A stretch of 64,000 bases of DNA, taken from the NCBI RefSeq assembly GCF_046105845.1, contig NZ_CP151004.1. One strand, given 5' to 3'. Positions 36,411 through 37,631 of this stretch are shown piece after piece. Source of the DNA: Escherichia coli (lineage in GTDB: Bacteria > Pseudomonadota > Gammaproteobacteria > Enterobacterales > Enterobacteriaceae). Each line of letters starts with the position of its first letter. The stretch's first letter is position 1. Below the pieces are notes generated by a model. That model was given only the letters and a program-made list of their open reading frames with translations. It was not told the origin of the DNA and did no database searches. Position numbers and translations under genes: made by a program.

Positions 36411-36531
36411 TTGACAACTTCTGGTACGATTCGCCCGCAGCCATTGCTGACCGCGGGCGAAAGTGTAAAGCAGGTGCCTTACCATCCTGACCTGACAACC
36501 GGATATGCGGGGATTGCTCCCAACACAACGG

Positions 36532-36684
36532 CTACTTCTTCGGTTCGTAAGCGAGAACAGCCTTAAACTCAATATTACGTTCCTTCACCGTAAACTCACA
36601 CAGCGAGTCTCCGACCAGAAGCGTAAATCCCAGCACCGTTAAACACAGCACTATGACTGCCACAAGGGCATATTTCGTCAGCAT
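36532..36684 (-). CDS. hokE: Type I toxin Hok-family protein HokE, copy 1 (50 aa)
   Basis: [50 protein letters not shown]; Hok-family hallmarks (single TM, LCE and AYEP motifs); recognised as HokE. Confidence 0.9.
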
Positions 36685-36784
36685 GTTTATATTGCCTCCA
36701 TGCGAAGAAGGGACTACCATCCAAATTGTTCAGGTTTGGGTAGGTAGCCCCAGGGTTGATAGAAATATCGTCCTGGGGCTTCAT
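36596..36784 (-). CDS. mok-like overlapping reading frame (modulator of killing), copy 1
   Basis: 62-codon frame starting upstream of and overlapping hok in another frame, as in hok/mok/sok loci; GGAAAG Shine-Dalgarno upstream. Confidence 0.6.
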
Positions 36785-36790
36785 CTTTCC
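36727..36790 (+). ncRNA. sokE: Candidate Sok-type antisense RNA, copy 1 (boundaries approximate)
   Basis: Plus-strand promoter-like TTGCCT-17 nt-TACCAT at 36692..36720, then a single-stranded stretch and a hairpin ccccagg / cctgggg (36749..36779) with a U-rich tail, antisense to the mok start region. Predicted from sequence architecture only. Confidence 0.35.
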
Positions 36791-37035
36791 AGACCTCAGA
36801 GTTAACCTGAAACCGGAAAGCTTCAGGCACCCGCCGTTATCTTACCCTTCCTCAGCAAAATAGCTGTTTATTTATACAGTGAATCCTGTTTCGGACTTCT
36901 GTTGGCAAAACTGATCATTGCCCTTAAAACGACATCGCCCGCAGCCATTGCTGACCGCGGGCGAAAGTGTAAAACAGGTGCCTTACCACCCTGACCTGAC
37001 AACCGGATATGCGGGGATTACTCCCCGCACAACGG

Positions 37036-37188
37036 CTACTTCTTCGGTTCGTAAGCGAGAACAGCCTTAAACTCAATATTACGTTCCTTCACCGTAAACT
37101 CACACAGCGAGTCTCCGACCAGAAGCGTAAATCCCAGCACCGTCAAACACAGCACTATGACTGCCGCAAGGGCATATTTCGTCAGCAT
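37036..37188 (-). CDS. hokE: Type I toxin Hok-family protein HokE, copy 2 (50 aa, one V-to-A difference from copy 1)
   Basis: [50 protein letters not shown]; intact frame. Confidence 0.88.
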
Positions 37189-37288
37189 GTTTATATTGCC
37201 TCCATGCGAAGAAGGGACTACCATCCAAATTGTTTGGGTTTGGAGTGGCAGCCCCAGGGTTGATAGAAATATCGTCCTGGGGCTTCAT
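37100..37288 (-). CDS. mok-like overlapping reading frame, copy 2
   Basis: 62-codon frame overlapping hok copy 2; differs from copy 1 in its N-terminal part (GAATPNPNN versus GATYPNLNN). Confidence 0.55.
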
Positions 37289-37294
37289 CTTTCC
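37231..37294 (+). ncRNA. sokE: Candidate Sok-type antisense RNA, copy 2 (boundaries approximate)
   Basis: Same promoter-like element and hairpin as copy 1; the predicted 5-prime tail carries 5 substitutions relative to copy 1. Confidence 0.3.
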
Positions 37295-37631
37295 AGACCT
37301 CAGAGTTAACCTGAAACCGGAAAGCTTCAGGCACCCGCCGTTATCTTACCCTTCTTCAGCAAAATGGCTGTTTATTTATACAGTGAGTCCTGTTTCGGAC
37401 TTCTCAATCCTCATTTGATCAACTGAAGCTGAACCCGTTTTTTTTCTGCATGCCTCAATCGTCAAAATTCTTCGCCACCAGTCCGCACTGCCATAACTTG
37501 TCATATTGCAAAATGTAGCCAATTTGCTTCAGTCACCATCATCAAAAAAAGAAACATTCCAGAACTTCCGCATCTCGCCCAGTCGCTCCCACTTCTATAC
37601 TGAATAGAAAACGCCAACATAAGAGAAACCT

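Follow-up and report, generated by a model that had tools for sequence, protein, structure and literature searches.

Uninterrupted tandem hokE/sokE-type modules between entD and ybdK in an Escherichia coli chromosome

The hok/sok system of plasmid R1 combines a Hok/Gef toxin with an overlapping mok reading frame, a cis-antisense RNA, Sok, that lies over the mok start, a 5′ tac element that pairs with a 3′ fbi element, and a terminal hairpin (PMC9841398). A single chromosomal copy of R1 hok with its own promoter is lethal without Sok (PMC9841398). Among the chromosomal relatives, hokE carries a Lex box and is an SOS-induced type I toxin (PMC2826370, PMC11951105), and no clear physiological role has in general been assigned to chromosomal hok loci (PMC2654758). 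In K-12 MG1655, hokE/sokE (b4415/b4835) forms one module in the order ybdK, sokE, hokE, IS186B (insL2), entD, and the paralogous hokC/sokC (gef) lies at a different locus, dnaJ-nhaA, where the homologous 3′-UTR hairpin GGGGAGTGATCCCC also holds an IS186 with a 10-bp target duplication. An IS-free duplicated hokE homologue has been published for the AIEC strain NRG857c (hok-2.1/hok-2.2; PMC7232551), and E. coli W has more than one hokE (ECW_m0635/0636) where K-12 has a single one (PMC3032704). Toxin and antisense modules are also arranged head to tail on the chromosome in the ldrABC/rdl and ibs/sib arrays, whose toxin families are unrelated to Hok; tandem ldr copies are mentioned in PMC7232551.

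These systems were compared with a 64,000-nucleotide stretch of an E. coli chromosome (contig NZ_CP151004.1), referred to below as the window. Positions 36411–37631 of the window make up the entire entD–ybdK spacer, with entD ending at 36410 and ybdK starting at 37632, both on the plus strand. Within the spacer lies a direct repeat whose period is 504 bp, and the first 300 nt are 98% identical between the two copies. Judged from its sequence, the locus is a pair of tandem hok/sok-type modules, and both ORFs are annotated as HokE in RefSeq genomes with the same arrangement. The parts of the two modules are as follows.

36430–36461, minus strand: copy 1 3′-terminal stem-loop of the hokE mRNA, terminator-like hairpin UUCGCCCGCGGUCAGCAAUGGCUGCGGGCGAA (inverted repeat I2; closed in the MFE fold)
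36472–36479, minus strand: copy 1 fbi (fold-back inhibition) element AGGCACCU, predicted partner of the mRNA 5′ end (MFE fold, nt 354–361 with nt 1–8)
36507–36524, minus strand: copy 1 3′-UTR hairpin, homologous to the K-12 IS186B site, reading GUUGGGAGCAAUCCCCGC / GTTGGGAGCAATCCCCGC (alignments)
36532–36684, minus strand: copy 1 hokE ORF, 50 aa, Hok/Gef family toxin (ORF list; Pfam PF01848)
36596–36784, minus strand: copy 1 mokE frame, 62 codons, starting upstream of hok and out of frame with it (ORF list; mok comparison)
36692–36720, plus strand: copy 1 putative Sok promoter, TTGCCT, 17 nt, TACCAT (read from the sequence; fits the 5′ end of MG1655 sokE b4835)
36728–36788, plus strand: copy 1 SokE antisense RNA (MG1655 sokE annotation carried over by alignment; fold; within the RF01794 match)
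36825–36832, minus strand: copy 1 putative hokE mRNA 5′ end and tac element GGGUGCCU (Rfam sok model position 1; MFE pairing with fbi; GGGTGC start context as in hokC)
36839–36844, minus strand: copy 1 putative hok promoter −10 hexamer TAAGAT (aligns with TATAAT upstream of hokC)
36864–36879, minus strand: copy 1 LexA box CTGTATAAATAAACAG, overlapping the −35 region of the putative hok promoter (pattern search)
36900–36934, no strand: inter-module spacer, 35 bp (missing from single-copy genomes such as MG1655)
36935–36964, minus strand: copy 2 3′-terminal stem-loop followed by a U-rich stretch, terminator-like (terminator scan; fold)
36976–36983, minus strand: copy 2 fbi element AGGCACCU (MFE fold, nt 354–361 with nt 1–8)
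37011–37028, minus strand: copy 2 3′-UTR hairpin GCGGGGAGUAAUCCCCGC, an intact G4-N6-C4 site (alignments to MG1655)
37036–37188, minus strand: copy 2 hokE ORF, 50 aa, identical to K-12 HokE (ORF list; Pfam)
37100–37288, minus strand: copy 2 mokE frame, 62 codons (ORF list; mok comparison)
37232–37292, plus strand: copy 2 SokE antisense RNA (sokE homology; fold; within the RF01794 match)
37329–37336, minus strand: copy 2 putative mRNA 5′ end and tac element (Rfam model; MFE fold)
37368–37383, minus strand: copy 2 LexA box CTGTATAAATAAACAG (pattern search)

The leader, Sok region, LexA box, and 3′ UTR of MG1655 hokE/sokE, at the same entD–ybdK position, are near-identical to those of the window; MG1655 has one module broken by IS186B in the loop of the 3′-UTR hairpin, whereas the window has two uninterrupted ones. 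The window shares with R1 hok/sok all of the components named above, counting the predicted tac-fbi pairing. Unlike the R1 system, it is chromosomal, tandemly duplicated, preceded by LexA boxes, and divergent in sequence, and a plasmid-maintenance role would not be expected of it. The likeness to NRG857c and W (a duplicated homologue without IS and multiple hokE, respectively) is taken from the published descriptions, and the spacer and Sok-tail alleles of these strains may differ from those of the window.

Both modules match the Rfam sok model RF01794 over its full length (model positions 1–157), at 36676–36832 with 84.1 bits and at 37180–37336 with 80.3 bits, against a gathering score of 59. 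Their toxins cover profile positions 1–42 of 42 of Pfam HOK_GEF (PF01848) with 34.0 bits for copy 1 and 32.1 bits for copy 2 (cut-off 22), and score under the cut-offs of the NCBIfam Hok models (HokA and Hok-family; 49.2 against 89 and 40 against 73). The copy 2 protein is that of MG1655 HokE, the copy 1 protein is that of the THO-008 copy 1 HokE (WP_000956465.1), and the two differ by V8A. In both copies, the mok frame begins with an ATG that precedes the hok ATG by 100 nt, spans the hok start, and ends 29 codons inside hok. The K-12 leader is one C short, so that mok and hok share a frame there as an 83-aa fusion, in contrast to the out-of-frame mok of the window. Across modules, the mok frame is polymorphic, being 62 codons long and out of frame as in the window, 83 codons long and in frame in MG1655 and many others, or truncated to 17–22 codons in some. 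Two Rfam mir-1990 matches, at 36732–36796 and 37234–37302 with E values of 0.2–0.6, were set aside as chance matches to the Sok hairpin.

For structure prediction, mRNAs of 405 nt were folded, starting at position 1 of the Rfam model and stopping right after the terminal hairpin. In the MFE folds of both copies, nt 1–8 (GGGUGCCU) pair with nt 354–361 (AGGCACCU), a box further upstream sequesters the mok Shine-Dalgarno sequence by pairing, and a terminal hairpin of 13–14 bp closes the predicted molecule. The folds are considerably more stable than those of dinucleotide shuffles, with z-scores of −5.9 and −6.5. The modelled tac/fbi/ucb arrangement matches that described for R1 hok mRNA (PMC9841398). 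The tac-fbi pairs, whose pairing is a prediction, and the Sok hairpin are invariant across 29 modules compared. When fbi was removed in silico, the 5′ end of copy 1 refolded onto the neighbouring upstream box, which is the behaviour of the R1 model, and the MFE fold of copy 2 showed no switch; no tac-fbi pairing appeared in the fold of the hokC mRNA, for which the 3′ end was set arbitrarily. The SokE RNAs are predicted to fold into a single-stranded 5′ tail of 19 nt followed by a stem-loop and a U-rich tail; that of copy 1, placed by homology, covers the ribosome-binding site and start codon of mok.

A consensus sigma-70 scan of the entD–ybdK interval reported no promoter. The candidate Sok promoter TTGCCT-17-TACCAT has eight of twelve consensus positions, which places it just under the scan threshold, and ends 7 nt before the Sok start; the putative hok promoter has a poor −35 hexamer. 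These candidates, chosen manually (the Sok promoter and the TAAGAT −10 of hok), fit annotated or homologous 5′ ends. LexA boxes of the form CTGT-N8-ACAG occur twice in the window against 0.06 expected, each lying 32 nt upstream of the putative mRNA start. The earlier note had described both hok modules as structurally complete, and this description is borne out by the Rfam and Pfam matches, the predicted tac-fbi fold, the mok frame, and the LexA box found in each; by every sequence criterion applied, both modules appear complete.

The same note had stated that no IS186-like sequence lies between entD and ybdK. This could be confirmed, as BLASTN of the 1339-bp MG1655 IS186B core against the whole 64-kb window (E ≤ 1e-3, word size 11) returned no match, and the longest ORF inside the spacer in the ORF list is no longer than 84 aa. 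Its premise that K-12 has an IS186 in the interval was likewise correct, since IS186B with insL2 is found in MG1655 between hokE and entD, at 608007–609351. The pairwise alignment that it had proposed shows that MG1655 matches the window collinearly, on one side from entD into the 3′ end of a module and on the other from ybdK into the 5′ part of a module. The halves join at GGAGTAATCC, the 10-bp target duplication, which stands as a direct repeat on either side of the 1339-bp core. The position of this decamer corresponds to the loop and 3′ arm of the conserved hairpin GCGGGGAGTAATCCCCGC, which begins 7 nt past the hokE stop codon. The equivalent decamer is found in the window at 36511–36520 in copy 1, where it reads GGAGCAATCC, and at 37015–37024 in copy 2, where it is identical to GGAGTAATCC; both window hairpins are continuous. 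The duplication of GGAGTAATCC in the hairpin, by which the K-12-type interrupted allele is recognised, is absent from the window. Copy 1 has TT in place of CG in its hairpin, a change unique among the 29 modules compared that cuts the G run to 3 and is predicted from the sequence to weaken the structure.

Because the K-12 element sits in a hairpin 7 nt past the stop codon, it leaves the hok ORF untouched and splits it from the downstream fbi element and terminal hairpin. The insertion thus lies exactly where it would remove the element proposed to keep hok mRNA inert and stable, which makes IS-free strains the right background for studying SOS-inducible hokE. For annotation, the strain should be described as having an uninterrupted, duplicated hokE and not the K-12 laboratory allele, so that findings made in K-12, whose hok loci are described as inactive, should not be extended to it.

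We consider it very probable that the locus is an intact, IS-free tandem hokE/sokE locus working on the R1 principle. By homology with R1, hok would be transcribed from a promoter overlapped by the LexA box, so that DNA damage should raise the level of hok mRNA. Pairing of the 5′ tac with fbi, which lies close to the 3′ terminus, would keep the full-length mRNA inert, with the ribosome-binding site of mok sequestered. Slow 3′ trimming would then take off fbi and allow the 5′ end to refold, and the refolded mRNA would be both translatable and the target of the short, unstable Sok RNA covering the mok start. Without Sok, translation of Mok would cross the hok start and the 50-aa membrane toxin would be made. 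In this scheme, we infer transcription starts, SOS control, mRNA processing, and toxicity by analogy. The locus may be functional in this strain, and the chances that either module has a measurable phenotype are roughly even. The weak or unrecognised promoters, the truncated mok frames of some sister modules, and the hairpin change unique to copy 1 speak against maintained function. Intact chromosomal hok loci reportedly have not been shown to stabilise plasmids, in work by Pedersen and Gerdes from 1999 that is said to have included an ECOR survey; a complete module therefore need not be one that kills.

The IS-free and duplicated state of hokE is already known and common. According to a 'distant' mode search of 5,426 complete E. 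coli genomes, 2,404 (~44%) have the junction between the two copies; a megablast count of 759 is an undercount owing to diverged spacer alleles. The K-12-type hokE::IS186 junction occurs in about 1,880 of the 5,426 (~35%), an approximate figure (range about 1,750–1,890) with slight contamination by other Hok-IS186 junctions, since the first junction query also caught the homologous hokC::IS186 junction at 87.5% identity and a longer query reduced this contamination without removing it wholly. Approximately 65% of complete E. coli genomes are thus without the hokE::IS186 junction, and absence of the IS is the majority state of the species. In 39 evenly spaced chromosomes, ~40% have two or three copies and no IS, ~20% have a single copy and no IS, and ~38% have the IS. 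No complete RefSeq E. coli exceeds 98.4% identity to the window over 20 kb.

In finished genomes, the same spacer alleles turn up in arrays of one, two, and three copies, and the junction in the window is identical to that between copies 2 and 3 of a three-copy strain. From these shared alleles across array sizes, the copy number of hokE appears to change by unequal crossing-over.

The diversity of the module is concentrated in the 19-nt Sok 5′ tail and its target, which form its hot spot. Nucleotide diversity is 0.20 in the tail against 0.02–0.06 elsewhere, a value reached in 0 of 5,000 column permutations. Between the two copies in the window there are 6 differences over the 19 tail positions and 6 over the other 362 of the transcript (Fisher p = 5e-6). 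Of the 12 multi-copy genomes sampled, which include the window, none has a tail allele shared between co-resident copies. The copy 1 tail allele is present at 2,399 places in 2,393 genomes, and that of copy 2 at 429 places in 429 genomes. Predicted tail duplexes have energies of −33.5 and −35.1 kcal/mol for the cognate pairs against −16.5 and −20.3 kcal/mol for the non-cognate ones. This pattern would agree with selection for orthogonal Sok recognition among the tandem paralogues; it would agree just as well with paralogue lineages of long standing in which gene conversion has homogenised the remaining sequence. Discrimination between paralogues is a property of the ibs/sib antisense RNAs. It could be suggested, tentatively and with less than even confidence, that a hypervariable Sok tail keeps tandem hokE modules functionally orthogonal while recombination homogenises the rest, and that the hok hairpin is an IS186 hot spot through which hok loci are repeatedly disabled. 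If so, each Sok would control its own hok mRNA alone, and a strain would have as many independently triggered toxin units as it has copies. The tail-allele pattern, in which tandem copies hardly ever have an allele in common, may be new, and is the sole lead here that might merit population-level study.

A competing explanation of the locus is that the modules look complete and yet are silent relics, which escaped IS186, have no physiological effect because their expression is too low or their repression too strict, and persist by drift and unequal recombination. Promoters that are weak or missed by the scan would agree with this, as would the lack of a reported phenotype on deletion of K-12 type I systems and the description of chromosomal copies as degenerating (PMC2654758); moreover, many sister modules in other strains have mok cut to 17–22 aa, so that decay of modules does occur at this locus. 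Against it, the Hok ORF is intact in 29 of 29 modules compared, with 6 nonsynonymous and 12 synonymous segregating changes (a ratio of ~0.17 in a crude count that ignores phylogeny), tac, fbi, and the Sok hairpin show no variation among lineages that differ in other respects, and a single R1 hok copy on the chromosome is lethal without Sok (PMC9841398). We regard silent relics as possible but rather doubtful, and favour working modules on the R1 pattern.

Two further accounts concern the origin of the present arrangement, and both are unlikely. IS186 could once have been present at hokE in this lineage and later have disappeared, either through precise excision or through recombination with an IS-free allele; the hairpin has been hit repeatedly, with independent insertions of opposite orientation at K-12 hokE, O104:H4 hokE copy 1, and K-12 hokC, and CB209, which is among the closest complete genomes (98.3% identity), carries the IS. 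Neither copy in the window, however, contains a doubled target sequence or an IS remnant, genomes without the junction extend across many lineages, and copy number and alleles are already explained by unequal crossing-over among IS-free modules, so that such a loss seems quite improbable. Still far less credible is a second module produced by collapse or expansion of a repeat during assembly. Tandem 504-bp repeats can be misassembled in principle, and nothing specific points to this here, whereas defined differences separate the copies (6 of 19 Sok-tail positions, and Hok V8A), the 35-bp spacer junction recurs in 2,404 independent complete genomes, and arrays of one, two, and three copies carry the same spacers in finished genomes.

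The independent insertions at hokE, hokC, and O104:H4 hokE copy 1 suggest that the hok 3′-UTR hairpin behaves as a recurrent IS186 target. A study by SaiSree et al. (2001) reportedly has a title that fits recurrent targeting of the hok hairpin, and an IS186 consensus is said to have been published. All three IS186 copies of MG1655 lie in the loops of G4-N6-C4 hairpins with 10-bp duplications, namely GGAGTAATCC at hokE, GGAGTGATCC at hokC, and GGATAATTCC downstream of nupC, the last of these hairpins being located directly 3′ of nupC. The K-12 hokC and hokE elements occupy homologous hairpins in opposite orientations relative to hok. In O104:H4 C227-11, two inverted IS186 copies flank one 504-bp hokE unit.

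The most variable part of the hokE/sokE module was located in the 19-nt 5′ tail of Sok together with its target in the hok leader, where nucleotide diversity (pi) is 0.20, compared to 0.02-0.06 in other parts of the module. The tails in the two tandem copies, which were compared across L002-L015, loci from other E. coli genomes, are as follows.

36728-36746, + strand: Sok 19-nt 5′ tail, copy 1
37232-37250, + strand: Sok 19-nt 5′ tail, copy 2

The tail allele of copy 1 occurs at 2,399 places in 2,393 genomes and that of copy 2 at 429 places in 429 genomes, and tandem copies of one genome almost never carry the same allele. 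Paralogue-specific antitoxin recognition is a possible explanation, among others, for the distinct alleles of co-resident copies.

A 1-nt indel, CCCCAGGA[C]GATATT, together with additional indels makes the mok frame, compared across loci L001-L015, polymorphic as well.

36596-36784, - strand: mok frame, copy 1
37100-37288, - strand: mok frame, copy 2

Both copies in the window have an out-of-frame mok of 62 codons, and MG1655 and others have an 83-codon Mok-Hok fusion frame. In some modules mok is reduced to 17-22 codons, and translational coupling may have been lost there.

Two open reading frames lie antisense to hok.

36505-36642, + strand: ORF antisense to hok
37009-37263, + strand: ORF antisense to hok, copy 2, 84 aa

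These correspond to the 'hypothetical protein' CDS placed by PGAP opposite hokE in many genomes and frequently marked there as frameshifted or partial. The antisense ORFs over the hok/Sok region are probably spurious calls.

Just after the hokE stop, each copy carries a hairpin site relevant to IS186 insertion; the comparison sites are L001 3001-3020 and 4340-4362, with others in loci L007, L016, and L008.

36507-36524: 3′-UTR hairpin, copy 1
37011-37028: 3′-UTR hairpin, copy 2

All three IS186 copies of MG1655 reside in G4-N6-C4 hairpin loops, each with a 10-bp target duplication, and the homologous 3′-UTR hairpin has been struck in both hokC and hokE, in opposite orientations. In O104:H4 C227-11, one 504-bp hokE unit is found between two inverted IS186 copies. 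Copy 2 of the window retains a perfect target site; the G run of the copy 1 hairpin is broken by a TT change unique to that copy.

Among 5,426 complete RefSeq E. coli genomes, the best identity is 98.1-98.3% for entD-ybdK and only 98.4% over 20 kb (window 28000-48000); therefore, the source lineage is without a close representative in this collection. Two SDR-family oxidoreductase genes, not entD, adjoin hokE copy 1 in strain R12 and in an isolate of ST131 (L004 1-1200 and L012 1-850), so that the left flank of the locus differs in these lineages. The mechanical entD ORF (35640-36410) comprises 256 aa from a GTG start at 35640; entD is annotated in RefSeq genomes as 621 nt (206 aa), and BLAST homology with MG1655 entD starts at 35790. 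In the fepA-entD spacer (35625-35731), the Rfam matches to REP-derived families are all sub-threshold, namely ES036 (36.9 bits vs the 37.6 threshold), naRNA4, and Ysr224; this spacer is most likely a REP element.
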